Positions 455-34,228 of a stretch of 35,300 bases of DNA are shown in pieces (the stretch's first letter is position 1; the number at the start of each line of letters is the position of its first letter). The DNA comes from Patescibacteria group bacterium. GTDB taxonomy: Bacteria; Patescibacteriota; Minisyncoccia; UBA6257; 02-FULL-45-10c. Where the stretch lies: contig JAMCXE010000003.1 of NCBI GenBank assembly GCA_023474975.1, positions 1 to 35,300 of the forward strand. Reading direction: 5' to 3'. The translations under genes and the position numbers were made by a program. The notes beneath the pieces are model-generated. The model did no database searches. It worked only from the letters and a program-made list of their open reading frames with translations, and had not been told where the DNA came from.

Positions 455-595
455 TTATCTATCATTCCAAACTCGATTTGGAATCCAGTCTTTTCTAAAT
501 TTCCTTGCCCGCCGGCAGGCAGGAATCTCTCACATAGATTGCCACGCCACAGGCCCCCTCGGTCATAGCCCTACGGATGAGACCTTGCAATGACC
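455..595. repeat. Cluster of GC-rich palindromic repeat fragments
   Basis: Contains ttccaaa..tttggaatccag, the near-palindrome cccgccggcaggcagg, agattgccacgcc (also at about 3244 and 34124) and cttgcaatgac (a variant of the CTCGCAATGAC end motif). Clearly more G+C-rich than the flanking DNA. Confidence 0.5.
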
Positions 596-643
596 GATTA
601 TTTTCCCACTACACCGCGGTATAGTGGCGCTATTTTTTAATTC

Positions 644-3051: not shown

Positions 3052-3060
3052 ATTCTTCGT

Positions 3061-3320
3061 TTGTCGTTCCGGGCTTGACCCGGAATCCAGATCTGGATTC
3101 CCTCCACCAACTGGCGGATTCGCGAGAATGACAGAATTATCTCGCCTTACCTTCTAAAAATACCAAATTTTGTCCGTCATTGCGAGTGCTACTGAAACGA
3201 TCTGACCGTAGGTCATCCAGAGCGAAGCGTGAGGATCTCAAATGGATTGCCACGCTCCAAAAACGGGACTCGCAATGACAAAAGATAAACTCACCACCCC
3301 GCGAACTCCTCGCAATGACT
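3061..3320. repeat. Cluster of GC-rich palindromic repeats (GTCATTGCGAG / CTCGCAATGAC family plus a GGAATCCAGATCTGGATTCC palindrome)
   Basis: Perfect 20-bp palindrome ggaatccagatctggattcc at 3082-3101. GTCATTGCGAG at 3176-3186 pairs with CTCGCAATGAC at 3269-3279 (a 104-bp unit). A further CTCGCAATGAC lies at 3309-3319 and a variant cgcgagaatgac at 3121-3132. Confidence 0.65.
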
Positions 3321-7492: not shown

Positions 7493-8035
7493 ATGTCTGG
7501 TCACAATAAATGGTCTCAGATAAAACATAAAAAAGGCGTATCCGACGTTAAACGCGGAAATTTGTTTTCCAAGCTTTTGCGTGCGATCTCCATTGCCGCT
7601 AAAGACGAGCCGAATCCACAATTCAATCCCAGGCTCCGGACCGCAGTTGAAACAGCCAAAGAAGCTCTAGTGCCGGCCGAAAACATTGAACGCGCTATAA
7701 ATAAGGCTTCCGAACAGAAAGACCTGTCAGAAATGGTGATCGAAGCATACGGACCGGAAGGATCAGCGATCATTATTGAAGCCATCACCGATAATACCAA
7801 TCGTACTATTTCTGAAGTAAAAAAGATCTTAAGTGACCATAGCGCTAAATTTGCCAATCAAGGAAGCGTGCTCTGGGCGTTTGATGCGCCAATAAAGGGA
7901 AATCCGGAAGCCGCCGAATGGAAGGCTAAATTTCCGCAAAGCATTTCCGAAGAATCAAAAGCAAAACTGGAAAAACTTATTGAAGCCCTGGACGAACATG
8001 ATGACGTCCAAAATATTTTCACGAATACTTTATAA
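7493..8035 (+). CDS. yebC: YebC/PmpR-family protein, short form (180 aa)
   Basis: GHNKWSQIKHKKG, KRGNLFSKL, NPRLRTAVETAK and C-terminal DDVQNIFTN. About 55-60 residues of the canonical middle domain appear to be absent. Confidence 0.85.
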   Translation: MSGHNKWSQIKHKKGVSDVKRGNLFSKLLRAISIAAKDEPNPQFNPRLRTAVETAKEALVPAENIERAINKASEQKDLSEMVIEAYGPEGSAIIIEAITDNTNRTISEVKKILSDHSAKFANQGSVLWAFDAPIKGNPEAAEWKAKFPQSISEESKAKLEKLIEALDEHDDVQNIFTNTL

Positions 8036-8294
8036 ACGCAAATTTTCTATCTTGTCGAAACCTGCGCGGCCGAGCGGGCACGGTGCTCCAGACAATCATT
8101 TTCTCAAAAACAGCATAGTTTTTCCCAGCGGAAAAACCTGCTTCTCTCTCGGCGCTTTATCGCAGACGAACCGTGCTAAAGCGCCCCTAAGATGTTCCTT
8201 AAAAAGGATTGTCTGGAGCGAGCGAGGCGAGGAAATAGTGAGCGAACCCGCCGGGGTGAGCAAAGTGGGTTGAGAAAAATAGAAAATTTGCGTT
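8035..8294. mobile_element. MITE-like, non-coding, GC-rich element with perfect 16-bp terminal inverted repeats
   Basis: aacgcaaattttctat at 8035-8050 is the exact reverse complement of atagaaaatttgcgtt at 8279-8294. A nested perfect 13-bp inverted repeat pairs gctccagacaatc (8085-8097) with gattgtctggagc (8207-8219). The interior is far more G+C-rich than the flanks. The element exactly fills the yebC-ruvC spacer. Confidence 0.55.
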
Positions 8295-11773: not shown

Positions 11774-12904
11774 TTAGCTGTTTTTAATAGGCATCAATAT
11801 ATAGAAATAAGAAAAGTCTTTTTGAGATCTGATCATCGCCGGGTGTTGATCGCCGTTTAATCCAAGCACGATCTCCTCGAGATCAAAGCTTTTCAAACCT
11901 TCAAGCAAAAACCTCCAATTAAATACTATCTCGAAATCTTCACCTTTTGATTTCATGGGTACCAAATAACGATTTTCTCCGATCTGTTGAGTGGACGAAG
12001 AAACCTCCATAACTTTCTTACCCTCCTTGCTTTTCAATTTAACGTCATTTATTTTTCCACTAAAATTACTAACCAGTCTTACCGCATTTGTAAAATTCTC
12101 TTTGGAAACGATACATTCGGTTTCAAATTTTTTAGGAACAATGGGATCATAATCCGGATAAGTTCCATCTATTAAACGCGATATAATTTCAACATCTTCT
12201 CCTTTAAATAAAATTTGATTTGGATCAAAATAAATATGAAGATCATCTTCCGACGCAGAACCTTCTTTTTTTGAAAAAATCCTTGGGATCTCTTGAATTG
12301 TTTTTAGCGGAATTATCGCTTTAAATCCTCTTATAAAGTTAGCTTTATAATCTTTGTCGAATAGAGTTTTTTCGGCCAACCTGACTCCATCAGTAGCTAC
12401 CAATTTCAAACTGGAAATCTGAAAATCGAACAGGATCCCGCTTATTTCCGGCCTTATTTCCGATATCTGAGCGCAATTTATAACTTTTAAAACCGCCTCA
12501 TTAAATACATTACTGCTAATCTTAAGGTTATTTTGCATATTGCCAATTTCGGGAATTATAGGAAAATCTTCTTCGCTCAAACCCTGGATTGCAGCTTCAT
12601 AATTATCTGTTTTTAAGATCAAATTATCTTTTTTTGATTCTAGACTCACTTTCTCACTGTCTAAATTAGAAATGATCCCATTTAAAATAGAAAAAGGAAC
12701 CGTTATTGAACCATCCTCGATTATCTTACCTGAAACATTCTTACTTATCGCTAATTCTAAATTTGTAGCCGTTAAGCGAATTTTGTTATTAAAAGTCTTT
12801 ATTAGGATATTTTTAAGTATGGGTAAATTATTATTTTCAGAAACAGCTTTCACTATTGAGTTCAAACCATCCTTCAAGTTTTCTTTTAGTATGAGTATTT
12901 TCAT
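11774..12904 (-). CDS. dnaN: DNA polymerase III beta sliding clamp
   Basis: 376 aa. The N-terminal pattern MKILILKENLKDGLNSIVKAVS..LPILKNILIK...IRLTATNLELAI is typical of DnaN. Located directly downstream of dnaA. Confidence 0.9.
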   Translation of the reverse strand: MKILILKENLKDGLNSIVKAVSENNNLPILKNILIKTFNNKIRLTATNLELAISKNVSGKIIEDGSITVPFSILNGIISNLDSEKVSLESKKDNLILKTDNYEAAIQGLSEEDFPIIPEIGNMQNNLKISSNVFNEAVLKVINCAQISEIRPEISGILFDFQISSLKLVATDGVRLAEKTLFDKDYKANFIRGFKAIIPLKTIQEIPRIFSKKEGSASEDDLHIYFDPNQILFKGEDVEIISRLIDGTYPDYDPIVPKKFETECIVSKENFTNAVRLVSNFSGKINDVKLKSKEGKKVMEVSSSTQQIGENRYLVPMKSKGEDFEIVFNWRFLLEGLKSFDLEEIVLGLNGDQHPAMIRSQKDFSYFYILMPIKNS

Positions 12905-13138
12905 TTATTTAATTAATTTATATATAAGATAGTAGTAGATGTAGTATTTGATAACATTGTGAATAAGTGCCTTTTGTTTAGTATTTATCGGTGTTAACTC
13001 ATGCACAGCCAGATGTTATTTAAATTTTATAGATTGTTTATAAGTGAAATGATCGTTGGATCTTATTAATTTATCCTATTTTTTATAACAGGGATAACTA
13101 TGGAGTATCCATAGGTTTTCAACAAAGCTACTAACAGT
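12905..13138. other. AT-rich dnaA-dnaN spacer with DnaA-box-like 9-mers (possible oriC part)
   Basis: tgtgaataa at 12958-12966 fits TTATNCACA on the other strand. gtatccata at 13105-13113 has 2 mismatches to TTATCCACA. Confidence 0.3.
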
Positions 13139-14509
13139 TTATTCTTTATTTATAATGTCTTTTATGGCTATTATTTTTTGATTAAGATTTTGATCTTTTT
13201 CTATTTCTGCGGAAAGTTTGTTGTAGGCATAGATTGCGGTTGTATGATCTCTTTTCCCGAGTTTTTCTCCAATAGATGGATAGGACATACCCAGTAATTC
13301 GCGTAAAAGATACATGGCTATTTGTCTTGGTTCAGCTACGCTGTTTTTTCTGCAACGCCCGGTCAGGGAATTGATATCTACTTCAAAATAGTCCGCAACT
13401 GCTTTTATAACTTGAGTGCTGCTTACATTTTTAACTGGCTGTTGAAAGCTTTCGTTAATAATTTCTTCTGCTTGTTTGGCGCTGAGCTCAACATTTTTAG
13501 TGGTTTGTACGAATAAAATTTTATTTAAAACACCCTCTAACTCCCTTAGGTTCTTTTGAACTTTTGAGGCAATGACATCTATTACATTGTCGGATAAGTT
13601 AGCTCCCCTATTTTGTAATTTGGTCTTTAAAATAGCCATTCTTAGCTCATAATCAGGGAAACCGATATCGGCGATCATTCCGCCTTCAAAACGAGATCTT
13701 AATCTCTCTTCGAGCGTAGGAATGAATCTAGGCGGCCTATCAGAGGAAATGATTATTTGTTTATTATTTTCGTACAAAGAATTGAAAGTGTGAAAAAACT
13801 CTTCTTCGGTTGCCGCTTTACCCCCAATGAATTGAATATCATCGATTATCAAAACATCTGTAAGACGATATTTTTCTTTCAGGTCTTCGGTTCTTTTGTT
13901 TTTTATAGACCAAATAACATCGTTCGTGAATTTTTCGGAAGAAACATATTTTACTTTTATTTTGTTGTTGTATTCTTTTTTGATCTCATTGCCTACAGCT
14001 TGAATGAGATGTGTCTTTCCTAGACCTACGCCTCCGTATATAAAAAGTGGATTGTATTTTTTTCCGACATCTTTTATTACTGCTGTAGCTGCAGCATGTG
14101 CTAACTCATTTGATGACCCTACAACAAAGGATTTTAATGTGTATCGGGGATTGAGATTCGTTTCGGGATCAACTTTTAATTCGGCAAACGATTGCTGAAA
14201 TTTTATATCGAAACTATCCGAAGACTTTTGTTTTGTGTGCGTGGCCGAGTGTCCGGAAGAATTTTTATTTTCAACTACATATTCTATTTTTTTTGTGCTT
14301 TCGTCAAAATTTCTTAAAACAGAAAGAATGATCTTGTTATATTTATTCTCTACCCACTCTTTTGCAAAATTATTAGGCAAACTCACAAATACGACACCGT
14401 CCTGTTTGTGAGTCAACCGACTATTTTTTAGCCAGGTAAGAAAATTTGGCCTAGAAATTTGTAATTCTACTTCGCTTAACGTTGATTGCCAAAGATGTTC
14501 TAGTTCCAT
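13139..14509 (-). CDS. dnaA: Chromosomal replication initiator DnaA
   Basis: 456 aa. Walker A GGVGLGKTHL, Walker B LIIDDIQFI, and the domain IV helix-turn-helix region (RDHTTAIYAYNKL). Confidence 0.95.
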   Translation of the reverse strand: MELEHLWQSTLSEVELQISRPNFLTWLKNSRLTHKQDGVVFVSLPNNFAKEWVENKYNKIILSVLRNFDESTKKIEYVVENKNSSGHSATHTKQKSSDSFDIKFQQSFAELKVDPETNLNPRYTLKSFVVGSSNELAHAAATAVIKDVGKKYNPLFIYGGVGLGKTHLIQAVGNEIKKEYNNKIKVKYVSSEKFTNDVIWSIKNKRTEDLKEKYRLTDVLIIDDIQFIGGKAATEEEFFHTFNSLYENNKQIIISSDRPPRFIPTLEERLRSRFEGGMIADIGFPDYELRMAILKTKLQNRGANLSDNVIDVIASKVQKNLRELEGVLNKILFVQTTKNVELSAKQAEEIINESFQQPVKNVSSTQVIKAVADYFEVDINSLTGRCRKNSVAEPRQIAMYLLRELLGMSYPSIGEKLGKRDHTTAIYAYNKLSAEIEKDQNLNQKIIAIKDIINKE

Positions 14510-14871
14510 ACCGGGTTTAAAAGATTTTTAATTAAATGTTTACGACTTAATTTACTACGACTTAATTTATATTGTTATTAAACCACCAAGCCGCTGTCTA
14601 TTTCAATCCCCGTCCGTATCGCATCGATTTTTTTATATTTTTTTGCTATTTGATACAAGTTAATTTTATTACGTAACCAACAGGAGTCAAATAGTGAAAA
14701 TATAACAATGTGTTAATTAGTTGTGGAGAACTTATTTTACACCGATCATGCCCAAGTTGAAAGTCAAAAGTCGAAAGTCGAAAGTTGAAAGTCAAAAAAT
14801 CTGAAAGTTATTAGAAAGTTTTTATTTTTGTAATTTTGACTTTTGAGCTTTGACTTGTTATTCTATTTGAT
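14510..14871. other. Divergent dnaA/rpmH intergenic region; candidate oriC and promoter region
   Basis: Classical oriC location. DnaA-box-like tgtggagaa at 14722-14730 has 1 mismatch to TGTGGATAA. The 13-bp direct repeat acgacttaattta occurs twice at 14542-14569. Contains AT-rich tracts. Confidence 0.4.
14757..14856. repeat. Heptamer tandem repeat NRAAAGT (5-7 copies) followed by its inverted copy, forming a long imperfect palindrome
   Basis: tgaaagt caaaagt cgaaagt cgaaagt tgaaagt at 14758-14792, more copies at 14802-14819, and inverted ttttgacttttgagctttgactt at 14834-14856. Confidence 0.7.
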
Positions 14872-15006
14872 ATGTCACAAACTTATCAACCAGCAAAAAA
14901 GAAGAGGGCTAGAGCGCATGGTTTTCTAAAAAGAATGAAGACGCCGGGTGGAAGGCGCGTTTTGGCAAGCCGCAGAATAAAAGGCAGGAAGAGATTGGCC
15001 GTTTAA
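14872..15006 (+). CDS. rpmH: 50S ribosomal protein L34
   Basis: Below the ORF-track cut-off. My translation reads [44 protein letters not shown] (44 aa, stop TAA 15004-15006). Canonical position upstream of rnpA. Confidence 0.9.
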
Positions 15007-15023
15007 GCCTTGTTTTTAGGGCT

Positions 15024-15350
15024 ATGCTTGCAAAGAAATTCCGCCTGCAAATTCAATCGGTTTTAAACAAAAGCGGTCGCAACATCGGTAACCGCTATTT
15101 TTTATTGAAATTATTTCCCGGATCGGTCAATTACAATCGTTTTGGCGCGGTGATAAGCAAAAAGGTTCATAAAAGTGCCGTTTGGAGGAATCGTTTGAAG
15201 AGAATTATTATGGATGTTGCCGGAAAATTTATTGATGCGGGAGATCGTAATGGTCAAGAAGTCCTTATAATTGTTTCTCCGGCTATGACTAAATTAAAAA
15301 AAGCTGATATTATAAAAGAAATCGATGAATCATTGAGAAAGATTCTCTAA
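15024..15350 (+). CDS. rnpA: RNase P protein component
   Basis: 108 aa. FGAVISKKVHKSAVWRNRLKRII (RNR motif region), in the rpmH-rnpA-yidC synteny. Confidence 0.85.
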   Translation: MLAKKFRLQIQSVLNKSGRNIGNRYFLLKLFPGSVNYNRFGAVISKKVHKSAVWRNRLKRIIMDVAGKFIDAGDRNGQEVLIIVSPAMTKLKKADIIKEIDESLRKIL

Positions 15351-15422
15351 GGCTATAAAATTTAATTTTCAAGCCACTTCTGATTGAAGATTGGGATTTG
15401 AAAATTGAAAATTACAACAATT

Positions 15423-16124
15423 ATGTTCAACACATACCTATACATACCGCTTTTAAATATTCTTATTTTTTTATATAACAATTTTTCTTTTGGAAGCTTG
15501 GGTCTTGCTATTATATTGCTTACTGTTTTGATAAGAGTGATCCTTTTCCCTCTTTTTTATAAAAGCGCAAAAAGCCAAATGATAATGCAGAAGATCCAGC
15601 CGCTTATTCAAAAGATACAGAAGGATCACAAAGAGGACAAAGAAAAGCAGGCGCAGGCTCTAATGGACCTTTACAAGAAATATAAAGTTAATCCGTTTTC
15701 CAGCATTCTTATGCTATTTGTCCAAATTCCTGTATTGATAGCACTATATAGTTTGTTCAGATCCGACTTTTCTGCTATGAATTTTTCGGTTCTGTATAGC
15801 TTCGTCAGCGCTCCGCAGCATATCAATACTTTATTTTTGGGCTTGATAGATCTAAAAAGCAGCAGTATTATAATGGTAGTTTTGGCGGCAATTGCGCAGT
15901 ATTTTCAGGGCGCACTGACGCTTCCCAAAAAAGAAAAAGGAAAGGAAGTGTCCGCGGCAGAAAAAATGACCAGGCAAATGATCTATTATACCCCGCTTTT
16001 TACCGTTCTCGTTCTTTGGAAGATGCCTTCAGCCATTGGTCTTTATTGGTTGGTTACTTCTCTTTTTTCGGTGGGTCAGCAAATTTATATAAATAAAAAA
16101 GTTAAAGTTAATATTAACGAATAA
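15423..16124 (+). CDS. yidC: Membrane protein insertase YidC (short, Oxa1-like form)
   Basis: LLTVLIRVILFPL, KYKVNPFSSILMLFVQIPVLIALY and GLYWLVTSLFSVGQQ. The ORF track starts at TTG 15405; I prefer ATG 15423. Confidence 0.85.
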   Translation: MFNTYLYIPLLNILIFLYNNFSFGSLGLAIILLTVLIRVILFPLFYKSAKSQMIMQKIQPLIQKIQKDHKEDKEKQAQALMDLYKKYKVNPFSSILMLFVQIPVLIALYSLFRSDFSAMNFSVLYSFVSAPQHINTLFLGLIDLKSSSIIMVVLAAIAQYFQGALTLPKKEKGKEVSAAEKMTRQMIYYTPLFTVLVLWKMPSAIGLYWLVTSLFSVGQQIYINKKVKVNINE

Positions 16125-16127
16125 CAT

Positions 16128-16574
16128 ATGAGCAATACAGAAAGCGTTAAAAACAAAATAAAAGAGCTTTTAGAATTGGGAGGGTTCAGAGATTTTTCCG
16201 CAGAAGCCGATATCGAGGGCAAGAGGATTTCGATATTTATTAACGAATTCAACCTCGATAAAAGCGTTCTTCCTAAAATAATTGCCGATTTTGAGAGAGT
16301 GGCCAGACTTATTTCAAAGAAATTAGATCCTGCCATTGAAGATAATTTGATCCTAGATATTAATAATTACAGACGAGAGAGAGAGCGGCTCATCGCTGAA
16401 TTAGCTAAGGCTGCCGCTAGAAAGGTTTTGATCAACAAGCAAGAGGTCACATTGCCGGCGATGAATGCCTTCGAGAGAAGAATAGTCCATATGGAGCTTG
16501 CCAGTAGGCCCGACGTCAAAACCGAAAGCTTTGGAGTGGGTCCAGAAAGGCACATCGTGATCAAGCCAATATAA
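16128..16574 (+). CDS. jag: Jag/KhpB-like RNA-binding protein (KH plus R3H)
   Basis: 148 aa with the R3H region NAFERRIVHMELASRPDVKTESFGVGPERHIVIKP. Lies immediately after yidC, as in many bacteria. Confidence 0.8.
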   Translation: MSNTESVKNKIKELLELGGFRDFSAEADIEGKRISIFINEFNLDKSVLPKIIADFERVARLISKKLDPAIEDNLILDINNYRRERERLIAELAKAAARKVLINKQEVTLPAMNAFERRIVHMELASRPDVKTESFGVGPERHIVIKPI

Positions 16575-17795: not shown

Positions 17796-19142
17796 TTAAG
17801 GAAGGCAGTTTCCGTCCGGTCCCGTATATCCGCTTGCGCAATATTTCGGGGGAACGACCGGTGTTGGAACAACGCATTTTCCCGCAGAATCCTTTCGATA
17901 TCCAGATTCGCAATTATTACAGGTGGTATTTGTGTCGTGTGCATAGCCAGTGGGGCATGGAGTTAGAACTAAATTTGAGGCATTGCATGTACCATCAGGC
18001 TGTCTTACGAGATTGGTTTTACAAACACAGGCTCCGTTAACTAGGTCGTTTCCGTCCGCGCATTTTGTGCAGACCATTTCGCTGGAATTAGAAGACGATA
18101 AACTAGAAACTTGTTGTCCATTATTAGTTGTATTTAAACTAAACATTCCGCCAGTGGTACCGTATACTAAGCACCCAGGTGATCCAGATCCAGAAGTTTC
18201 CGATACTGAATTATTGCTTCCACTAGTAGAACACCCATTTTTTGTGGTTGCGTCTAATTTACAATTTGGTCCACACGGCTGGGATATATTTGAATAATCA
18301 GGGGTTATTTGAGAGCAGTCGGTTACTTGAGTGGCTGGAGGCAAGAAAGAATCTAGATCGATCGGCTCCAGGCCGGGGTTTTTTAAATTAACTAAATTCG
18401 GATTTATTGTGTAAAGAATTAAATAGGCTCCGAGGAGAAGAAGTATTCCGTATATGGCATTCAACATCCACGTCTTACCCTCTTCTTTGGAAGCCATATT
18501 TCCGGCAGACAGGGTGTACAAAGCAGCTCCATATATTACCGCACCTAAAGCCACGAATCCGACGATCATCAGGCCGAATTGATAAAGTCTGGCAATATAT
18601 CCCGCCGGGTTATCAGGGGTTGGACACTGGCCGTTTATTCCAAGAGCGTTGGGATTGCATGGAATAGTAACTTTAAGTTCATACGGTTTTATTGTTGCGC
18701 TAAGATTGGCGTCTTGAGGCATTACGTTTTGAGGTATTGAAGCCATGACACACCTCCATCCAGTACCTGAACCAACAGGACAATCTGTTACCGTGTAAGT
18801 ACAAACTGTACCGCTTGGGCATGGTATTACGGTTTTGTCGCAGAGAGCATTTTTTCCACTAATTGCAGTTCCAACTGATGCGCAATCACCATTAGACTTA
18901 TAAGTTGTTGGTCCGCTTGGTGATGGAGCAATATTTTCCCCAATAGTTCCTTTTGCAACGCATATACCCGGTTCCGGCGTGATATGCCATTCGCAATTTG
19001 TATTTGGTGCCGTGCAACTACTGGAGTCTAGTTTCGAACAATCAATTGATGTTTGTGCAAAACTCACCGGAATTGAATTAAAGACAAATAAAAATCCCAT
19101 CAATGAAACTGCAAATATTTTTTTAAAATAGTTTAAATTCAT
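17796..19142 (-). CDS. Cys-rich secreted/membrane protein containing a VirB2/TrbC-like (T4SS pilin-like) TM hairpin
   Basis: 448 aa with a signal peptide (..IPVSFAQT). The central hairpin is YQFGLMIVGFVALGAVIYGAALYTLSAGNMASKEEGKTWMLNAIYGILLLLGAYLILYTINP. About 28 Cys residues all lie outside the hairpin. The C-terminal motif C-x2-GY-x(6-8)-C occurs three times. Confidence 0.55.
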   Translation of the reverse strand: MNLNYFKKIFAVSLMGFLFVFNSIPVSFAQTSIDCSKLDSSSCTAPNTNCEWHITPEPGICVAKGTIGENIAPSPSGPTTYKSNGDCASVGTAISGKNALCDKTVIPCPSGTVCTYTVTDCPVGSGTGWRCVMASIPQNVMPQDANLSATIKPYELKVTIPCNPNALGINGQCPTPDNPAGYIARLYQFGLMIVGFVALGAVIYGAALYTLSAGNMASKEEGKTWMLNAIYGILLLLGAYLILYTINPNLVNLKNPGLEPIDLDSFLPPATQVTDCSQITPDYSNISQPCGPNCKLDATTKNGCSTSGSNNSVSETSGSGSPGCLVYGTTGGMFSLNTTNNGQQVSSLSSSNSSEMVCTKCADGNDLVNGACVCKTNLVRQPDGTCNASNLVLTPCPTGYAHDTNTTCNNCESGYRKDSAGKCVVPTPVVPPKYCASGYTGPDGNCLP

Positions 19143-19256
19143 TTTTTATTTTTTGTTGTTGTGAGGGATTTGCGATGTGACAACTTGTTAGTGAGATCGT
19201 TTTGGCGGCGCTCGTAATGACGGGTATTTGTAATTTAGTAATTAGTTATTGGCTGA

Positions 19257-20009
19257 TTACTTTATATCTAAATTGACATAATTTCTTGCGAATTCATAGT
19301 AGCTAGCCGGATTTTGAATGGTGATATTTATGCCCGTATTGGCGCCGACCGCAGGATTTCCTTGCGTAGTGGTCGTTAAATTAAGGATGGATGGGTTTCC
19401 AGATTGGCCAGAAACATCGGAGCCGTCAACGTTCCAAGAAATATTAAGCTGGCTTGGATCAGAAACATTGAAGAAATAAGGTATGGCCTGAAGTGGATTG
19501 GTGCCGACCTTAATAGTTCTGGCTGGATAGGGCGCATTTATAACAGCCTTTGCTTGCGTAGTTGGAATTGTAGTTAGCCCCTCTAAATCACCCATTGGAT
19601 ATTTGGCGTCTTTATATTTGGGGATGCTGATGCTTATCTGAGGGTTTACTTGATTGACGGTAAACTTTACAGATTTTAATCCTACCCCCGATTGCAAAAG
19701 ATTGTCGCCTAAATACCAAAGTATGTTTTGCTCGGAAAGATCTACAAATTTGCCCTGATCAAGGCAATCGAAGCTTACTTCTACCGAAGAGCCGATCGTA
19801 GGCATAACTTTCCCCGGGTAATTTGCTGGTACATAATTGGTCGCGCGCCAGGAAATCAAAAAATCAAAGTTGGGATTGATGGGTGTGGTAGTAATAGAAG
19901 GGATGTTTGGGGCAACTTGAGCATTTGCGGATGACCCGATAAGCATTCCTAAAATAGCTAAATACGCTAAGGAAGATGCGTTTTTTTTGATTAGATCGAT
20001 CAGCTTCAT
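19257..20009 (-). CDS. Secreted hypothetical protein (signal peptide, beta-rich)
   Basis: 250 aa. The N-terminal region AYLAILGMLIGSSANAQ looks like a signal peptide. I recognise no domain. Confidence 0.55.
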   Translation of the reverse strand: MKLIDLIKKNASSLAYLAILGMLIGSSANAQVAPNIPSITTTPINPNFDFLISWRATNYVPANYPGKVMPTIGSSVEVSFDCLDQGKFVDLSEQNILWYLGDNLLQSGVGLKSVKFTVNQVNPQISISIPKYKDAKYPMGDLEGLTTIPTTQAKAVINAPYPARTIKVGTNPLQAIPYFFNVSDPSQLNISWNVDGSDVSGQSGNPSILNLTTTTQGNPAVGANTGINITIQNPASYYEFARNYVNLDIK

Positions 20010-20059
20010 AATACTTTTTAATTATACATCAAAACAATAAATCAAAACAATTTAAAGTA

Positions 20060-20521
20060 TTAAACTTTTCCAGTCACAGCAGAAGCCTTGTCCGCGGCCT
20101 TATTTATGACTTTGCCAACGGCGCCAGTTTTTTTCAGTATACTCTCCGCTTTCTTCATACCAAACCAGTCTATGTAAACAACTATTCCCCATCCAATAGT
20201 GGATGGTATGAGCGCGCCGATATATGGCATTGCCGTTATTACCCCTACTACTAAACTGGTCAGCCAGATCTCTTTCCCCATTTTTTTTATGACAATAAAA
20301 TAGAATTCGCTGATCGATGTGCGAATCATGCTTATTATTCCAAAATCAGATAATCCAAACAGAAACAGGAAAAGCTCTAGGGTATCAGATATCAAGTAGA
20401 AAGGAGTTATGATAACTATTTCCCACATTGATAATTTTGGCTTGTATTCTTCCTGTTCATCTTCTTTTTTTGGAGCGGTCGCGCGCTTGTTTGGCCGTAT
20501 TATAGGATTTTGTTCGGGCAT
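20060..20521 (-). CDS. Hypothetical integral membrane protein (3-4 TM)
   Basis: 153 aa with a charged N-terminus followed by hydrophobic helices. Starts 12 nt downstream of the VirB4-like gene. Confidence 0.55.
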   Translation of the reverse strand: MPEQNPIIRPNKRATAPKKEDEQEEYKPKLSMWEIVIITPFYLISDTLELFLFLFGLSDFGIISMIRTSISEFYFIVIKKMGKEIWLTSLVVGVITAMPYIGALIPSTIGWGIVVYIDWFGMKKAESILKKTGAVGKVINKAADKASAVTGKV

Positions 20522-20533
20522 GTTTTGATTTAA

Positions 20534-22249
20534 TTAAGCATTTTGCTGTTGGAGAATTTGCTCTGGTTTTGTAGTAACAATTTTATCTTCAAGATAAGAC
20601 GCTATTATTTTAATGGCAACATGATTAAGTCCGGCAAAGAAAAGTCCCTCACCTACCGCAGCTTCAAGCAGAAGATTTTTTTCGCCCTCTGTAAGTCCAA
20701 AAGATTTTATAATGAGATCTATCATTGTTGGCGACTGTTTCAATAAAAGCTGCAAAGAGGAATTGGTGATGATCGGGCGGCCATAGGGAGATTTAAGGAA
20801 GTCTTCCACGTCTTGTGTGATCGTGGTGACTCCAAGATAATATTTTCTGCATCTCTTTACTAAGCCAAACATAAAAGAGGCTCCGTCTTCGTATTTCATA
20901 AGCACCCACGCCTCATCTACTATCAGTACTCTTTTTTTGAGCTCTGCTCTAATCAAGCTCCAGATGAAATTCAAGACGATATACATAGCGATCGGCCTAA
21001 GCTCTTCTTCCAGGTCACGGATAGAAAAAACTATTAATCGATTTTTTATATCAACATTGGTTGGCTGATTGGTGAAACCGGCGTAGCTGCCTTGAGTATA
21101 TTTATAAAGGCGCTGCGCCATTGTTTTTCCTCCCTCCATGTTTTCCAAAATTTTTTGAAGATCTTCTAGAAGCGGCGGAATCGCTTTGCTAAAATCTTTA
21201 CCCGGAGCGATATCATGAGAGGCGTAGGTTTCGGAAATGGCTCTATCTAAAAGAGCATCTTCTTCTGGGGTAAGCTGGCCCATCATTAATTTTAACAATC
21301 CGGCAATATTAACAATGTGTGAACGCAAAACATCACTTGGATCTTCGTCTTTGGGTATGATCGGAAGGTCGAAGGGATTGATGTGGTGCTGGGAGGCCAG
21401 AGAGATCCTAAAATAACTTCCGCCAACGGAAGATGCCAGCGCTTCATATTCATTTTCCGGATCTATGATCAAGATATCAGTTCCCATCATAAGCAGACGC
21501 AATGCTTCGAGTTTGACTGCATAGCTTTTTCCGGCACCCGCTTTAGCAAAAACAACCATATTGGCATTCTCTAAAGAAAATCTATCAAAAACTATCATCG
21601 AATTATTACTTTCATTGATCCCATAAAGTATTCCGTTGTCGGAGGTAAGATCCGCTGAAGTGAATGGGAAGAATGATGATAGCGGTCCGGAATTGAGAGG
21701 ATTGTAAATTAATAAGCGATCTTGACCGAGCGGAATGGACGAGCTAAATCCTTCAGTTTGTTGAAATAATGCTGGTTTTATATAGACTAGTCGGCTTTCG
21801 AGCAGATTGGTTATTCTCCCTTCTAATTTGTTTAGTTGCTCTATCGTTTCAGCATAAATGGTGATATAGACGCTTACATTAAAAAGCTGTTCGCGCGCTT
21901 GTTGAAGCGAATCTCTTAGTCCCTCAATATCTTGAAATGCGGTTTCAAGCATTGGGTCTCTTACCACGCCCTTTTCTTGTTTTTCATATATTTGAGATTC
22001 GACCTGAGCCGCTTTCTTTCTAAGTTGTTTTAACGCTAGGTTTGTTTCTATAGGATGAACGAAGATAGATATATCTATAAGATCGGGCATATCTATGATT
22101 TGAGAGAACCAGCCAGTGGAAAGAAATCGCGGGTAAGAAAATATAAAAAGAGTTTTGGCTAGCTTGTCGCCAATTTTTATGAAATTTGAATTCACTTCCA
22201 CTGCCGCCGGGGCAATTATGTCTATTATATTTTTTGCTGTATCAGCCAT
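20534..22249 (-). CDS. virB4: VirB4/TrbE/CagE-like type IV secretion ATPase (short form)
   Basis: 571 aa. Walker A FAKAGAGKSYAVK, Walker B RVLIVDEAWVLM, and downstream GVTTITQD. The overall architecture is VirB4/AAA_10-like. Confidence 0.85.
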   Translation of the reverse strand: MADTAKNIIDIIAPAAVEVNSNFIKIGDKLAKTLFIFSYPRFLSTGWFSQIIDMPDLIDISIFVHPIETNLALKQLRKKAAQVESQIYEKQEKGVVRDPMLETAFQDIEGLRDSLQQAREQLFNVSVYITIYAETIEQLNKLEGRITNLLESRLVYIKPALFQQTEGFSSSIPLGQDRLLIYNPLNSGPLSSFFPFTSADLTSDNGILYGINESNNSMIVFDRFSLENANMVVFAKAGAGKSYAVKLEALRLLMMGTDILIIDPENEYEALASSVGGSYFRISLASQHHINPFDLPIIPKDEDPSDVLRSHIVNIAGLLKLMMGQLTPEEDALLDRAISETYASHDIAPGKDFSKAIPPLLEDLQKILENMEGGKTMAQRLYKYTQGSYAGFTNQPTNVDIKNRLIVFSIRDLEEELRPIAMYIVLNFIWSLIRAELKKRVLIVDEAWVLMKYEDGASFMFGLVKRCRKYYLGVTTITQDVEDFLKSPYGRPIITNSSLQLLLKQSPTMIDLIIKSFGLTEGEKNLLLEAAVGEGLFFAGLNHVAIKIIASYLEDKIVTTKPEQILQQQNA

Positions 22250-22270
22250 AATATTTTTTTAAATTCATGT

Positions 22271-22972
22271 TTATTGAGCAACCTTTTTCTCTATTGTGCT
22301 GGGATTGTATAGGTTGTAGAAAAGCTCGGAAAGTTCTTCGTCGTTTAATGGCACAACTCTGAGCCCGATCTGATTTAAGCCGTCGACGACCTCGCCGACC
22401 CTTTGATCGAGTTGTTCAAGATATTCTTTCTCCGTTTGTTTTTTTTCATCCCCCTCATTTTTTTTCTTTCCAAAGAGGCCGAATACGGCGCTCTTAAGGC
22501 CGGCGCCGGTATCTGAAACACGTATGGGATCTAGCGGGACAACCACAAAAAAGTTTTTGGACATTATTGCATTTTGAGAAACAAAGGATTTTATAAATTC
22601 CCTGTATTCAAATATTTGATTCTTCAAAAGCTCGTTGGTCTCTTGATTTTCTCTTTCCTCTACTTTTCTTAAATAATTGTCGATATTTATTTTTCTTGAA
22701 TGTATAAAAATTTGAAGAGTGAAATCAACGGAATTCAAAAAACCTTGAAAGGCGGAGGTTATCATTTCCTGCTCTTCGGCCGATTTGAGATCGAAGTTTA
22801 TTCCCGAAACAATGAGTATCCTCCTATATGCCCCACCCCTTAGCTTTATTACGCCGTTATTAATAGAATCGATATTAACGAATTGTTGTGTAGCGAAAGA
22901 CGGTTCTTTTGATTCTTGTATGTTAGGCATATGTTTAAGTATACAATTGTTTAATTCTTTATTTATAATCAA
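22271..22972 (-). CDS. Hypothetical soluble protein resembling a VirB4 N-terminal module
   Basis: 233 aa. The pattern FVNIDSINNGVIKLRGGAYRRILIVSGINFDLKSAEEQEMITSAFQGFLNSVDFTLQIFIHS parallels the N-terminus of the adjacent ATPase. The track start is TTG 22972; ATG at 22930 is an alternative. Confidence 0.5.
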   Translation of the reverse strand: MIINKELNNCILKHMPNIQESKEPSFATQQFVNIDSINNGVIKLRGGAYRRILIVSGINFDLKSAEEQEMITSAFQGFLNSVDFTLQIFIHSRKINIDNYLRKVEERENQETNELLKNQIFEYREFIKSFVSQNAIMSKNFFVVVPLDPIRVSDTGAGLKSAVFGLFGKKKNEGDEKKQTEKEYLEQLDQRVGEVVDGLNQIGLRVVPLNDEELSELFYNLYNPSTIEKKVAQ

Positions 22973-23471
22973 CTCTTCGGGCCATCTCTTTCTCTCCGGT
23001 TATTTTTCTGAAAACCTCGTATTTTTCCTGATGCGATCTGAATTGATCAAAAATAGCCGGCTGAGTCGTTTTTTCTCTAGCTGGTATGGGGGTTTTTGAA
23101 GTAAGAAGTTTTTGCCATATATCGTTCAATGGATTTGCGCCTTCTTTTATCTGTGCGGGCTCTTTCGTTTTTTCTATTTTTTGGCCGGGGGCGGCAGTTT
23201 TTTTCCAAAGATAAAATTTAGGCTTCCAGAAATAACCAATAGCTGCGCTAACTATTTTAGGCAGTGGAATGCCGTTTATTTTTATGAAGGCCAAAGATAT
23301 TGTAGCTGTATTTATCAGCACTATCGAAAAGGCCCAAAGCCACAAATTAAAGAAGAAGAATAAGAAAAAAGAAAGGCCGGCGCCGATCGTGATGTAGACG
23401 AATTGCTTAAGGGTTAGCGGCCCGATTATCTTGTCTTCTGTGTCTATAAATTGAGGGACTTGAAACTGCAT
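22959..23471 (-). CDS. PrgI/TcpE-family (VirB3-like) membrane protein
   Basis: MQFQVPQFIDTEDKIIGPLTLKQFVYITIGAGLSFFLFFFF.. followed by a second TM helix, which is the characteristic PrgI-family N-terminus. I prefer ATG 23471 over the track's TTG 23483. Confidence 0.6.
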   Translation of the reverse strand: MQFQVPQFIDTEDKIIGPLTLKQFVYITIGAGLSFFLFFFFNLWLWAFSIVLINTATISLAFIKINGIPLPKIVSAAIGYFWKPKFYLWKKTAAPGQKIEKTKEPAQIKEGANPLNDIWQKLLTSKTPIPAREKTTQPAIFDQFRSHQEKYEVFRKITGEKEMARRVDYK

Positions 23472-23507
23472 ATGTTTGACCAACGACTAACAACTGACGA
23501 CTTACGA

Positions 23508-29482: not shown

Positions 29483-30511
29483 TTATAGATCCTTAATAAT
29501 TGATGCAAGTTTTAAGATATCGTTTACGGATAAGTTTTGCGGTCTGGAGTTTAGCGGCAGATCTAATGATCCAAGAGCTTTTTCTATTTGTTCTTTCGGA
29601 ATATCCGATCCGGATCTGAGATTGTTTAGCAATGTTTTTCTTGGTTGCTTGAAGATCGTGTGAATTAGTTTGTAATAGTTTTCTATTTCTTTTGCGAGAT
29701 TCTCATTTTTTATCTTGTCATTGCGAGAAGTCTGCGGCGCGGCAATCTCATGATGCATAGATCGCTTCGCTTTGCTCGCAATGACAGATTGGAGACTGTT
29801 AATTTCTTTTTTGGTGATTAGTCTAATAACGGCAGAATCAACATCTGGCGCGGGTTCGAAATCGGTAGGCTTCAGTTTAAAAATAATTTCTGGTTCTGCC
29901 CAGAATTGAGTTGCCGCCGCAAGCAAATTCATTCCGCTATAAACTGTTTTTATTCTGTCATTGCGAGGTCTCGCCCGTAGGGCTGCGACCGAGGGAGTCT
30001 GCGACGCGGCAATCTCATTAAGTCCAGATTGCTTCGGCAGCACTCGCAATGACGGTTTTGGTTGAGCGGCGATTCTTTCGGCTACTTCTTTTTGGACCAT
30101 TATAACGGTCAATTTTGGTTTGTATTCAAGCTCGCTAATAATTCTGAGTAATTTTCCGGTTATGTAATATGGGATATTGCCGACAATATTAAATTTTAAA
30201 TTTTTAATTTTTAATTCCTGAACGATTTTTGGCAGAACCTTTAACGCGTCGCCTTCAATGATTTCAACACCGTTTAGTTTTAAATTTTGAACTTTATTTT
30301 TCAGCTCGGTTGCCAATTCCCGATCTTTTTCTATGGCAATTATTTTAAAATTAGAAAGTGTAAGCTTAAAGCTTTCTGCCATAGGCAGGGTAAGCGCTCC
30401 TTTGCCGGGACCGATCTCGATAATTACATCGCCCTCCTCGATATTCAAGGCCGCGACTATTTTAGAAATAGCAACTTTATTTTTCAAGAAGTGTTGACCG
30501 AGTTTTTGCAT
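29483..30511 (-). CDS. rsmA: 16S rRNA (adenine1518/1519-N6)-dimethyltransferase RsmA/KsgA carrying two in-frame repeat insertions
   Basis: LGQHFLKNKVAISKIV, IIEIGPGKGALT, FNIVGNIPYYIT, MVQKEVAERI and FEPAPDVDSAVIRL. At 342 aa it is longer than is usual for this family because of two GC-rich inserts. Confidence 0.85.
   Translation of the reverse strand: MQKLGQHFLKNKVAISKIVAALNIEEGDVIIEIGPGKGALTLPMAESFKLTLSNFKIIAIEKDRELATELKNKVQNLKLNGVEIIEGDALKVLPKIVQELKIKNLKFNIVGNIPYYITGKLLRIISELEYKPKLTVIMVQKEVAERIAAQPKPSLRVLPKQSGLNEIAASQTPSVAALRARPRNDRIKTVYSGMNLLAAATQFWAEPEIIFKLKPTDFEPAPDVDSAVIRLITKKEINSLQSVIASKAKRSMHHEIAAPQTSRNDKIKNENLAKEIENYYKLIHTIFKQPRKTLLNNLRSGSDIPKEQIEKALGSLDLPLNSRPQNLSVNDILKLASIIKDL
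29717..29785. repeat. 69-bp GTCATTGCGAG...CTCGCAATGAC palindromic element inside the rsmA CDS
   Basis: Ends at 29717-29727 and 29775-29785. 69 bp equals 23 codons. Translated as ..VIASKAKRSMHHEIAAPQTSRND.. Confidence 0.75.
29957..30053. repeat. 97-bp GTCATTGCGAG...CTCGCAATGAC palindromic element inside the rsmA CDS
   Basis: Ends at 29957-29967 and 30043-30053. Shares the core agtctgcgNcgcggcaatctcat with the 69-bp copy. Translated as ..SLRVLPKQSGLNEIAASQTPSVAALRARPRND.. Confidence 0.75.
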
Positions 30512-30536
30512 AAGATAAGTTTAAAGTGTGAATATC

Positions 30537-30556
30537 CCCGCCTGCCGGCAGGCGGG
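30537..30556. repeat. Perfect 20-bp GC palindrome cccgcctgccggcaggcggg between the helicase gene and rsmA
   Basis: Read directly from the sequence. A related near-palindrome lies at about 505-520. No convincing U-tract follows on the minus strand, so its role as a terminator is uncertain. Confidence 0.6.
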
Positions 30557-30584
30557 AAAAATCAAAGATTTTTAAATTTTTTAA

Positions 30585-32510
30585 TTACTCTATATATATC
30601 GTTTCATCGTCCCAGTCGGCGTTCCTTTCTCCATAACTGGAAATTTTTGTAAATTCTATCACATCGCCCGGCAGCTCGCCTAAAAACCTAGAAGGTAAAT
30701 TATAGAAACTTATAAATAATTTTTTCTTGGCGCGAGTCATTGCAACGTACATGAGCCGTCTTTCTTCCTCAATGTCTTCGGCTTTAAAAAAAGACTGCTC
30801 GTGCGGAAGTAGGCCTTCGTTGCAGCCGATCAGAAAAACATTTTCGAATTCCAGCCCCTTTGCCGCATGAATAGTCATTAATTTTACAGCATTCTTCTGG
30901 AGCTTGGGTTTGTCGTCTGATGTTGAGGTTAGGGCTACCTCCTCTAAAAATTTGTAAGGATCTTCATATTGCGAAGCAAAATTGATCAACTCCTTTATAT
31001 TTTCCATTCTTTCGGAAGGATTTTTAAAATTTTTGACAAGATAGCTTGAGTAGTCGGTATTTTCTATGAAATAGCTTATGATCTGAACCAGGGTTAGTTC
31101 CTTGGTTAATTCGGGAAGGCTGGCTGTTATTGTCCGGCTCTTTATTTTTCCCAAACTTTTTTCTAGACGTTCCGCGCTGGCGGCGTCTTTAGGGTTATAG
31201 GCATAGCGAAGTCCGGCAATAATATCTTTGATCTCTTTTCGAGCATAAAATTTAAGTCCGCCATATATTTCATAAGGGATCTTGTTGCGGATAAAAACTT
31301 GTTCCACCGCGCGTGATTGCGCGTTGGTCCTGTAGAGTATCCCCATTTCTCCGGTTTGGGCGCCAGCCCTTACCATTTCTAATATCTTTCCGCAAATACC
31401 CCAAGCTTCTTCGTCGGCATTTTCATAGGCGGAAAGTTTTATTTGCTCCCCTTCGCCGTTTTTTGTCCACAAGTCTTTTGGCTTTTGCTGTTTATTGTTC
31501 TTGATGAGCTCGGAAGAGGCAGAAATTATCATTGCCGTTGAACGATAATTTTGCTCCAATTTTATTATTTTGGCTTTCGGCCAATCGAGTTCAAAATTCA
31601 AGAAATTTCTAAAGTCGGATCCTCTGAACTTATAAATGCTTTGCGCGTCATCTCCGATCGCAAAGATATTTTGATGTTTTTCGGCCAGTAATTTTATAAG
31701 CTGATATTGCGCTGTATTGATATCTTGATATTCGTCTATCAAAATATATTTATATTTTTCTCTATACTTCTCCAGAACCCTCGGTTCGTTTTTAAAAAGT
31801 TGAACAGTCTTGGTAATGAGATCATCAAAATCGAAGGCATTGCTTTTTTTGAGAACATCTTCATATTCTTCGTAAATCGCCGATATCTTTGCTTCGTGCG
31901 CGTTTTCAGAAATTTCATCCATATCTTTCAGTTCGTTTTTTATCTCCGAGATCTTACTCAAAATAGATATAGGATTGAATCTATCTTTGGAAAGCGCCTT
32001 TTCTTTTATTATTTTTTTGACGATGCTCAAAGAATCTTCACTGTCAAAGATAGTGAAATATTTTGTTCGTCCAAAAGCCCCGTTTGGCGAATCGGCCTCG
32101 TTCTTTAATATTTTTGCGCCGAAGGAATGAAATGTGCCAACAAACAGCTTATTTTCAAGGGTTTGTGATTCGTATGATTTTTCCGAAACCTCCGCAGCCG
32201 CATCGGCATGGTCCGCTCGTTGTATTTTTTCCGAGCGGCGATGCGGCGAGGACGAGCGAGTTTCGGGCTGGCGAAACGAAGCGTGTTGAGGTAAAACATG
32301 CGAATTAAAAACCCGGCTTCGCATCTCATTTGCCGCTTTATTGGTAAATGTTATGGCAACGATATTTTCCGGAGCTATTCCGGATCCTAGTAAATGAATT
32401 AAGCGACTGACCAGGGTTTTGGTTTTTCCGGATCCGGCCCCGGCCGCGATCAGTAATGGACCCCGATCGTGTTGCACGGCTTCAAGTTGCTTGTCATTTA
32501 AATTATCCAT
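30585..32510 (-). CDS. UvrD/PcrA/Rep-family ATP-dependent DNA helicase carrying an in-frame GC-rich insertion
   Basis: 641 aa. AGAGSGKTKTL, AITFTNKAANEM, GTFHSFG, ILIDEYQDIN, GDDAQSIYKFRG, QNYRST, MTIHAAKGLEF and VAMTRAKKKL. Confidence 0.9.
   Translation of the reverse strand: MDNLNDKQLEAVQHDRGPLLIAAGAGSGKTKTLVSRLIHLLGSGIAPENIVAITFTNKAANEMRSRVFNSHVLPQHASFRQPETRSSSPHRRSEKIQRADHADAAAEVSEKSYESQTLENKLFVGTFHSFGAKILKNEADSPNGAFGRTKYFTIFDSEDSLSIVKKIIKEKALSKDRFNPISILSKISEIKNELKDMDEISENAHEAKISAIYEEYEDVLKKSNAFDFDDLITKTVQLFKNEPRVLEKYREKYKYILIDEYQDINTAQYQLIKLLAEKHQNIFAIGDDAQSIYKFRGSDFRNFLNFELDWPKAKIIKLEQNYRSTAMIISASSELIKNNKQQKPKDLWTKNGEGEQIKLSAYENADEEAWGICGKILEMVRAGAQTGEMGILYRTNAQSRAVEQVFIRNKIPYEIYGGLKFYARKEIKDIIAGLRYAYNPKDAASAERLEKSLGKIKSRTITASLPELTKELTLVQIISYFIENTDYSSYLVKNFKNPSERMENIKELINFASQYEDPYKFLEEVALTSTSDDKPKLQKNAVKLMTIHAAKGLEFENVFLIGCNEGLLPHEQSFFKAEDIEEERRLMYVAMTRAKKKLFISFYNLPSRFLGELPGDVIEFTKISSYGERNADWDDETIYIE
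32182..32267. repeat. GC-rich nested palindrome inside the helicase CDS
   Basis: ccgaaac...gccgcatcg (32183-32205) pairs with cgatgcggc...gtttcgg (32239-32266). The central hairpin is ccgctcg-ttgtattttttc-cgagcgg. Confidence 0.65.
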
Positions 32511-34060: not shown

Positions 34061-34228
34061 GTCATTGCGAGGCAATCGAAGCAATCTCATAATGTCCGTC
34101 ATTGCGAGCATAGCGAAGCAATCCAGATTGCCACGACTTTATACTGAGCGAAGCCGAATGTACTTTATACTGAGCGAAGCCGAATGTACTTTATACTGAG
34201 CGAAGCCGAATGTACTTCTCGTAATGAC
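34061..34228. repeat. Composite GTCATTGCGAG-family element with an internal tandem expansion
   Basis: GTCATTGCGAG at 34061-34071 and 34098-34108. agattgccacg at about 34124-34134. Closing ctcgtaatgac at 34218-34228. Confidence 0.65.
34138..34215. repeat. Perfect 26-bp tandem repeat, 3 copies (tttatactgagcgaagccgaatgtac)
   Basis: Three identical head-to-tail copies read directly from the sequence, with no spacers. Confidence 0.9.

Follow-up and report, generated by a model that had tools for sequence, protein, structure and literature searches.

The window analysed here, a 35,300-nt stretch of the Patescibacteria contig JAMCXE010000003.1, contains an rsmA/ksgA gene (29483..30511, minus strand) with two GC-rich palindromic elements inside its reading frame. 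The gene forms an open reading frame (ORF) of 342 aa, whereas orthologues from Patescibacteria (the candidate phyla radiation, CPR) typically reach ~264 aa. Pfam identifies the product as a KsgA/RsmA dimethyltransferase (RrnaAD, 4.7e-40), which is supported by matches to solved KsgA structures (up to 1e-23), and its best homologues are Patescibacteria/Parcubacteria RsmA proteins. The first element, E1 (29717..29785, minus strand), is 69 bp long and falls in the linker that joins the methyltransferase domain to the C-terminal one. The second, E2 (29957..30053, minus strand), is 97 bp long and lies in the loop called loop12 in KsgA. Both elements are contained in this single ORF and the frame stays open, in agreement with the original prediction made from the DNA letters. 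The catalytic core is intact: all of the 32 columns that are invariant over 119 orthologues are kept, and so is FKQPRKT, a conserved motif of the C-domain (loop14).

The two elements keep the frame in different ways. E1 corresponds exactly to codons 243-265 (VIASKAKRSMHHEIAAPQTSRND), that is 23 codons, as had been predicted. E2 encodes approximately aa 153-185 (SLRVLPKQSGLNEIAASQTPSVAALRARPRND) and, contrary to that prediction, its 97 nt (1 mod 3) are out of frame when taken alone. Compared with orthologues, the added stretch is the whole 120-123-nt block at 29933-30055, formed by the E2 palindrome and a 24-nt AT-rich tail (29933..29956, minus strand; AGAATAAAAACAGTTTATAGCGGA, encoding RIKTVYSG), and the frame is restored by this block as a whole. 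Among the six frames across 29933-30055, the one in use is the only one open. The insert junctions of the predicted protein read ...AAQPKPSLRV..., ...RNDRIKTVYSGMNLL..., ...LQSVIASK... and ...SRNDKIKN.... An AlphaFold model built on the 119-sequence alignment (mean pLDDT, the predicted local distance difference test score, 87.6) has values of 52-62 with coil over aa 151-190 and of 67-80 over aa 241-270, and thus places both elements outside its confidently folded core.

E1 and E2 are related to each other and to other copies on the contig. The arms of the palindromes are perfect over 12 nt in E1 (TGTCATTGCGAG/CTCGCAATGACA) and over 11 nt in E2, and a 41-nt core is common to both (83% identity). 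GC content in 40-nt windows peaks at 57% in E1 and 75% in E2 (contig, 38.8%), and the predicted RNA fold of E1 reaches -27.4 kcal/mol (z -3.1) and that of E2 -42.6 kcal/mol (z -3.7). E2 is a head-to-head pair of YGTC-ATTGCGAG units with an additional side hairpin. Its 28 extra nt were considered as a nested insertion unique to rsmA, which was rejected when the same side hairpin was found in an intergenic copy (556-594). Rfam gave no match for the elements, either in the window (at the gathering score and at E<=1) or in seven element-bearing loci.

The terminus GTCATTGCGAG occurs at nine exact and four one-mismatch sites in the window (copy counts are confined to these 35.3 kb), for a shuffle mean of 0.43 and with none of 100 shuffles reaching 13. 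These sites comprise every position that had been listed before (3176, 3269, 3309, 34061 and 34098, and the variants 19211 and 34218) plus 584 and 9905, the latter lying outside any GC-rich island and probably being a chance match. A complete intergenic copy of 104 bp stands at 3176..3279 (plus strand; fold -42.5 kcal/mol, z -4.8), followed in intergenic DNA by a solo terminus CTCGCAATGAC (3309..3319, minus strand). A single intergenic unit, GTCATTGCGAG-GCAATCGAAGCAATCTCAT, is present at 34061..34090 (plus strand), next to an intergenic copy with the variant right end CTCGTAATGAC (34098..34228, plus strand). Nested in this ATTGCGAG-type element, at 34136-34217, a 26-nt unit (ACTTTATACTGAGCGAAGCCGAATGT) is repeated perfectly in tandem, 3.2 times. 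A degenerate intergenic copy with the end CTTGCAATGAC (502..596, minus strand) matches the first 39 nt of E2, side hairpin included, at 556-594 (87% identity), and a solo variant terminus, GTCATTACGAG, is found between genes at 19211..19221 (minus strand). E1 and E2 are therefore members of a dispersed repeat.

Both segments are absent from most CPR RsmA proteins, as seen in alignments with 24 and with 119 orthologues (P numbers denote orthologue proteins and L numbers loci read at the DNA level). Compared with Bacillus subtilis KsgA, site 1 (the E2 block, in loop12) has 44 residues in the window protein and 6 in the structure (chain residues 168-173), and site 2 (E1, in the linker that follows the final strand of the methyltransferase domain) has 43 residues and 11, respectively (212-222, in the gap between 211 and 223). 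At the DNA level, site 1 is empty in seven relatives (L001, L002, L123, L125, L126, L127 and L128) and an eighth carries a different element. The empty relatives read CCN CCR AAA directly joined to ATG AAT; in the window, CCA AAA is followed by the block CCGTCATTGCGAG...GACAGAATAAAAACAGTTTATAGCGGA (with the tail set apart, CCGTCATTGCGAG...CTCGCAATGAC AGAATAAAAACAGTTTATAGCGGA) and by ATG AAT. One of the empty relatives, L001, shares the gene order M23 peptidase, uvrD, rsmA with the window and is thus syntenic with it. The segments are thus lineage-specific, and the orthologue alignments rule out that they are ancestral RsmA sequence. Altogether, the comparison supports what had been proposed initially, that E1 and E2 would be copies of a dispersed element and not native RsmA sequence.

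Site 2 has a richer history. ATTGCGAG-type elements are found there in the window (a dimer), in L123 (a dimer with a nested palindrome) and in L127 (a single unit), and L001 carries a CGTC-1-type dimer (see below for this family) with the peptide VIPANEPESR...LDFRFHGND. All four elements have one common left junction, AAR/CAA TCY before it and GYC ATT after it, a pattern that fits either one old insertion remodelled in place or re-targeting of one junction. The flank of the palindrome at this site, which has an 18-nt similarity, was also tried as a part of the element and discarded: it encodes KKEIN, which is native because it is common to orthologue P0006. Between the rsmA start and the uvrD stop, a near-perfect palindrome (CCCGCCTGCCGGCAGGCGGG) occupies 30529-30564. 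Its motif recurs in frame in orthologue P0005 (PACRQAG...LPAGR), where it lies within a ATTGCGAG-type element of the RsmA linker.

The position of E2 deserves attention because the earlier view of both inserts as lying in surface loops holds only in part. Site 1 is not simply an inert loop: the E2 block replaces the stretch with K169 of B. subtilis loop12 (aligned residues 168-173). In the cryo-electron microscopy structure of the 30S-KsgA complex, loop12 touches helices h45 and h27 of 16S rRNA, and this loop is a length-variable specificity determinant among rRNA methyltransferases (bioRxiv 10.1101/2021.09.15.460497). The ribosome-binding interface would then tolerate an insert in loop12. The description of rsmA as essential was overstated, since KsgA-deficient Escherichia coli are viable, with cold sensitivity and kasugamycin resistance (PMC8216452).

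Insertions into CPR RsmA are not restricted to the window. At least one insert of at least 8 aa was found in 35 of the 119 orthologues, and these inserts are concentrated at three places: at loop12 (12 sequences), in the linker (8) and after core column 76 (3, with CGTC-like peptides). On a rough neighbour-joining tree, the presence of inserts needs 15, 10 and 3 changes for 15, 12 and 3 carriers at loop12, linker and column 76, respectively. Nine orthologues have a different palindrome (CCCGTTAGA...TCTAACGGG, peptide MNPVR...ASNG) exactly at the Met/Asn codon of loop12, including L124 (orthologue P0007), P0034, P0039, P0050-P0053 and P0081. In L124, the sole copy read at the DNA level, ATGAAT is duplicated on both flanks of this element, unlike E1 and E2. 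The MNPVR...ASNG carriers show 50-70% mutual identity (8 compared) and several have nearest relatives, up to 88% identical, that lack the insert; this distribution suggests target-specific, recurrent insertion. Because the inserts need 15 and 10 changes on the tree and the nearest relatives of several carriers lack one, loop12 and the linker are, as judged from these sequences, recurrent and independent insertion hot spots in CPR RsmA. At the other end of the protein, orthologue P0002 (the 3' end of rsmA in L002) finishes with ...FLHQLADSQE, which resembles the translation of an element at 3057-3134 of the window (LHQLADSRE; 3100-3134), and a repeat seems to have extended its C-terminus.

We next consider the family to which E1 and E2 belong. 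The unit pair can be written YGTC-ATTGCGAG...GAAGCAATC, a loop, then GATTGCTTC...CTCGCAAT-GACR. Among the matches listed, the outer stem of all copies is GTCATTGCGAG/CTCGCAATGAC and the inner one GAAGCAATC(C/T).. / ..GATTGCTTC, with a variable loop; the two stems are separated by CGAAGC/GCTTCG with 3-nt bulges or, alternatively, by a small GC hairpin. An ATTGC...GCAAT stem is present in every one of these copies. E1, E2 and the copy at 3176-3279 are head-to-head pairs, and 34061, L125 and L127 are singletons. In the window, the tag is TGTC in E1, E2 and 34061, and CGTC in 3176, 34098 and, in coding orientation, E2.

The pattern GTCATTGCGAG-N45-75-CTCGCAATGAC was searched in one genome per species and in metagenomes, and each scan gave at least 120 loci (organism names come from the genome scan alone). 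Since both ends were required, the proportion of dimers in this collection is biased. Among the matches listed, the element is found in Alpha-, Gamma- and Deltaproteobacteria, Bacteroidota, Chloroflexi, Planctomycetota, Cyanobacteria and Patescibacteria, with Bradyrhizobium, sphingomonads, Micavibrio, Rickettsiales, Mucilaginibacter, Pedobacter, Flavobacterium, Microcoleus and Berkelbacteria as examples of taxa. The base before GTCATT, which lies outside the search pattern, is C at 69% and T at 27% of 264 element ends among the matches listed, hence a pyrimidine at 96%. Most copies from Proteobacteria have the tail GCAATCCAG, whereas the window copies and other low-GC ones have GCAATCTCA or GCAATCTGG.

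About one in ten copies lies in a long open frame (low-GC loci among the matches listed: 7/43 in the genome sample, E1 and E2 included, and 3/32 in the metagenome sample). In-frame copies occur in Pfam-confirmed genes for GuaA (GMP synthase), UvrA, a penicillin-binding protein (PBP) transglycosylase of Patescibacteria and class I lysyl-tRNA synthetase (LysRS), and Pfam likewise confirms an acetyl-CoA synthetase, an NTPase, a MiaB-like enzyme and a Wzy_C protein (at its C-terminus) as hosts. The original prediction had proposed to record the length of the elements modulo 3; among the matches listed this is near even (46/48/38), and TGA always appears in one of the three 3'-end frames. The family thus has no built-in codon periodicity, and its in-frame copies are therefore survivors of selection. 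In the class I LysRS of a metagenome contig (L156, with a B3/4 domain), we observed two in-frame palindrome peptides, VSLRGMHQTV...TPRND, which is of the ATTGCGAG type, and upstream of it one of the RHSGKRS...GQARMTD type.

Palindromic repeats within genes have published precedents (PMC10969869), and the closest known group is the superfamily of CGTC-tagged repetitive extragenic palindromic (REP) sequences, CGTC-1 to CGTC-4 (Di Nocera, De Gregorio and Rocco, 2013, BMC Genomics 14:522; PMC3733652). These have a CGTC or TGTC tag, a stem starting with AT and a CCA tail, form mostly head-to-head dimers, occur in five phyla and have no linked transposase; RPE-6 and RPE-4 of Rickettsia conorii are CGTC-1 and CGTC-4, and copies stand in frame in the R. 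conorii dimethyladenosine transferase gene, in R. palustris UvrD/REP helicase, in PBP1C and in RsmE (PMC3733652 and its supplementary table). Atypical loops in Bradyrhizobium CGTC-1 are also noted there. The elements described here share the C/T-GTC outer tag, the ATT...AAT stem ends, a CCAG/CTCA-type tail, head-to-head pairing with some singletons, a spread over several phyla, apparently without a linked transposase in the ORFs tested, and a minority of copies in frame in housekeeping genes, including repair genes and a dimethyladenosine transferase. In contrast, each unit of the known CGTC REPs has an 8-9-bp stem and a 4-5-nt loop, while the stability of the ATTGCGAG element comes from a two-level dimer hairpin, often with a variable side hairpin. 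In addition, its peptides (VIAS/SLRA/HCE...LAMT/RND) are absent from the intragenic copies listed in PMC3733652, and Patescibacteria are not among the five phyla reported there. Because the unit alone forms only a 5-bp stem, we file the element outside the four CGTC families; from its sequence it is a variant of the superfamily or a close sister to it. The window also holds a CGTC-1-type sister-family element (3057..3134, plus strand; GTCGTTCCGGGC TTGA CCCGGAATCCAG ... GAGAATGAC) directly 3' of ruvB, whose peptide and sequence type agree with CGTC-1 (PMC3733652).

The Rickettsia palindromic elements (RPEs; Ogata et al., 2000, 2002) had been named as the precedent, and the analogy is apt: they are selfish palindromes that have entered unrelated genes in frame, at places that the fold tolerates, and are presumed translated, and E1 and the E2 block are likewise in frame. 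The further suggestion of an independent family fails, as the same architecture is found in many phyla (at least 120 loci) and the YGTC tag and stem ends are those of the CGTC superfamily, which includes RPE-4 and RPE-6. Because these two RPEs are CGTC REPs, the relation is that of a sister family and not of an independent invention. RPE-1 differs, being ~100-150 bp and found in Rickettsia only. By comparison of peptide lists only, the peptides of E1 and E2 are not of the RPE-4/RPE-6 types, whereas that of L001 at site 2 is. The initial interpretation thus holds only in part: the family is not independent, and KsgA is dispensable in E. coli.

Other small repeats are less similar. REPINs and their REP-associated tyrosine transposases (RAYTs), the GTAG REPs, also consist of dispersed, non-autonomous inverted REP pairs that form a long hairpin, but they have a GTAG tag, lineage-specific families and a single-copy RAYT flanked by REPs, where here the tag is YGTC and no Y1 transposase matched in the window. 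Bacterial MITEs (miniature transposable elements with inverted repeats) with in-frame copies (ERIC, QMITE1, Correia, Nezha) are likewise small, non-autonomous and occasionally involved in translational fusions; they have terminal inverted repeats, target-site duplications and a parent insertion sequence (IS), unlike E1 and E2, which have 11-12-nt inverted ends and for which no duplication or parent IS was found. In Neisseria, dRS3 repeats are integration targets for phage or IS110-type recombinases. The dRS3/NIME repeats resemble our elements as short ATT...AAT palindromes and were classed as CGTC-1 by Di Nocera et al. (PMC3733652). Literature searches by topic (palindromic, MITE or REP elements in CPR/Patescibacteria) returned nothing relevant, and the papers listed for the terminal-sequence strings were on PCR primers or otherwise unrelated, with no description of the ATTGCGAG variant. 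This is apparently the first case of such repeats described in Patescibacteria. In-frame behaviour was already known; new are the ATTGCGAG variant, its occurrence in this host phylum, the two hot spots (loop12 and linker), and a signal of conservation at the nucleotide level, which is presented below.

We consider it probable that E1 and E2 both represent a short, non-autonomous, GC-rich palindromic repeat with a YGTC tag, made of head-to-head REP-like units, two copies of which became fixed in length-variable segments of rsmA, loop12 (the 120-123-nt block) and the linker (69 bp). Selection would have removed all insertions except those that keep the frame, are free of stops and fall at tolerant positions, and E1 and E2 would look in frame because only such insertions survive. 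Most likely, transcription and translation include both segments, so that the enzyme, intact in other respects, would bear two flexible extensions (~41 and 23 residues). Spread would most likely depend on an enzyme acting in trans that recognises the hairpin and the tag, in the single-strand manner of HUH/RAYT-type transposases, or else on templated copying from another copy.

Several observations weigh against this explanation. Comparison of filled and empty sites reveals no target-site duplication at E1 or E2, and precise transposition does not account for the AT-rich tail of E2. Because site 1 contacts rRNA, tolerance of an insert in loop12 is not guaranteed. The canonical ATTGCGAG unit alone has a stem of 5 bp (ATTGC/GCAAT) and folds with -5.2 kcal/mol, vs -13.6 kcal/mol for the CGTC-1 unit. 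Finally, no transposase-like Pfam domain, RAYT or Y1 transposase was detected among the window ORFs tested, and no transposase lies between the closely spaced paired copies of L018 and L106.

A different explanation, which we regard as possible though rather unlikely, is that the palindromes are kept in ORFs for a role at the nucleotide level (as an mRNA or DNA structure, or as a recombination or processing site) and are exchanged or re-targeted at the same codons, like cassettes, by a site-specific system recognising GTCAT...ATGAC ends. One argument for it comes from a GC-rich palindrome in uvrD (32175..32306, minus strand; in frame, aa 69-112, 44 codons) that is unrelated to E1 and E2. This insert is absent from PcrA/UvrD structures and shared with the uvrD of L001 (L001 2570-2703), the two UvrD proteins being 80% identical; no further copy was found in the window or in the loci examined. 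Between the window and L001, identity at the three codon positions of the insert is 0.89/0.93/0.95, while third positions are only 0.53 identical in the remainder of the gene. The insert has 0 synonymous and 10 nonsynonymous differences, vs 234 and 95 in the gene remainder (Fisher p = 6e-6), and one compensatory stem pair, CATCGCC/GCCGATG to CATTGCC/GCCAATG. The rsmA element compared between L001 and L002 has a similar trend, which is not significant (0 synonymous and 4 nonsynonymous differences, p = 0.13). Judged from one significant sequence pair, it is thus the nucleic acid of the uvrD insert, and not its protein, that is conserved or homogenised, which argues against co-option of the peptide and leaves a nucleotide-level role possible. 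In the UvrD of L001 (2366-4351), we also observed an extra 24-aa segment at ~aa 538-561 (INPHTKRESAPSAPIENNSRYGVG) that the window UvrD lacks and that is probably another lineage-specific repeat insertion.

Further points in favour of a nucleotide-level role are the P1 and P2 stem sequences, which are conserved across phyla, and the occupation of one left junction at rsmA site 2 by both ATTGCGAG-type (window, L123, L127) and CGTC-1-type (L001) elements. Yet the significant pair belongs to a different palindrome family, and recent recombination or independent insertion could yield the same uvrD pattern. The common junction could stem from a single old insertion that then decayed or expanded in the ordinary way, no enzyme was identified, and ~90% of the copies are intergenic. 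That palindromes in Patescibacteria would be kept at the nucleotide level in coding regions and swapped or re-inserted at identical codons, as the shared linker junction and the recurrent loop12 hits might indicate, is thus a tentative proposition. If true, it would imply a site-specific recombination system that recognises hairpins, together with a cis-acting role of the hairpin in mRNA or DNA, and a possible side effect would be a reshaped rRNA-recognition loop in a universal ribosome-biogenesis enzyme.

It is less probable still that the inserted peptides were co-opted, the Arg/Lys-rich extension of loop12 altering or improving recognition of the unusual CPR 30S subunit. The location is suggestive, as loop12 is the h45/h27-contacting, length-variable specificity determinant, it is exactly there that 12 of 119 CPR orthologues have an insert of at least 8 aa, and the window insert holds 5 Arg and 2 Lys. 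Against co-option, the loop12 inserts come from unrelated element families with unrelated peptides and are scattered on the tree, with nearest relatives (up to 88% identical) devoid of them; AlphaFold gives low confidence and coil over the insert, and the comparable insert in uvrD is without protein-level constraint.

CPR genomes are known for intervening sequences in their rRNA genes. Together with the strong hairpins at the exact element boundaries, this could point to removal of the elements before the mature protein is made, in an intron-, intein- or bypass-like manner. We find such removal very improbable: the elements, with their 69-123 nt, are much smaller than group I/II introns or inteins, Rfam gave no match at the gathering score or at E<=1, there is no Hint/intein domain (the Pfam matches are to methyltransferase families only), and the frame and stop-free state are kept, which would be needless if the elements were removed. 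Least credible of all is that rsmA is a decaying pseudogene or that the contig is mis-assembled at the repeats, as two repeat insertions in one 1-kb gene of a metagenome-derived contig might suggest, but the 342-aa ORF is intact with every invariant residue present, the flanks are collinear with orthologues in a neighbourhood syntenic with L001, and CPR contigs from independent samples have comparable in-frame elements at the same sites.

Other features of the window were recorded along the way. Between yebC and ruvC lies a 255-nt GC-rich block (8038-8292) with a 13-nt inverted repeat at its ends (GCAAATTTTCTAT/ATAGAAAATTTGC) and a long hairpin inside (GCTCCAGACAATC...GATTGTCTGGAGC); its RNA fold is -96.1 kcal/mol (z -4.4). 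It has no Rfam match and no second copy in the window or in the loci examined; candidate identities are a MITE-like element and a small RNA not yet described. Truncation of YebC by this block was considered and dismissed, the end of the protein being normal. YebC/TACO1 itself (7493-8035) has only 180 aa, and the Pfam model of its second/third domain matches in two stretches; a part of the usual YebC domain appears to be missing, with a normal-looking C-terminus. The contig also carries, at 11774-16574 and 17796-23483, an origin-type neighbourhood (dnaN-dnaA / rnpA-yidC-jag) and a cluster resembling conjugation or type IV secretion systems, in which a TraG-like P-loop protein, PrgI and a weak type IV secretion pilin match stand among several ORFs without Pfam match.

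For the biology of these repeats, the finding that E1 and E2 are insertions of a CGTC-like palindrome extends selfish palindromes inside proteins from Rickettsia and a few other phyla to the CPR, with an element that is broad across phyla and not specific to one lineage. In-frame palindromes inflate protein lengths, and translations of such elements recur in metagenome annotation as spurious "hypothetical proteins" (peptides ending in RND or AMT). RsmA constitutes a compact natural experiment, in which many independent insertions from several element families fall at the same two or three positions, loop12 with its rRNA contacts among them. Its inserts could help to separate target preference from structural tolerance, to test translation, and to find the enzyme that moves CGTC-type repeats.

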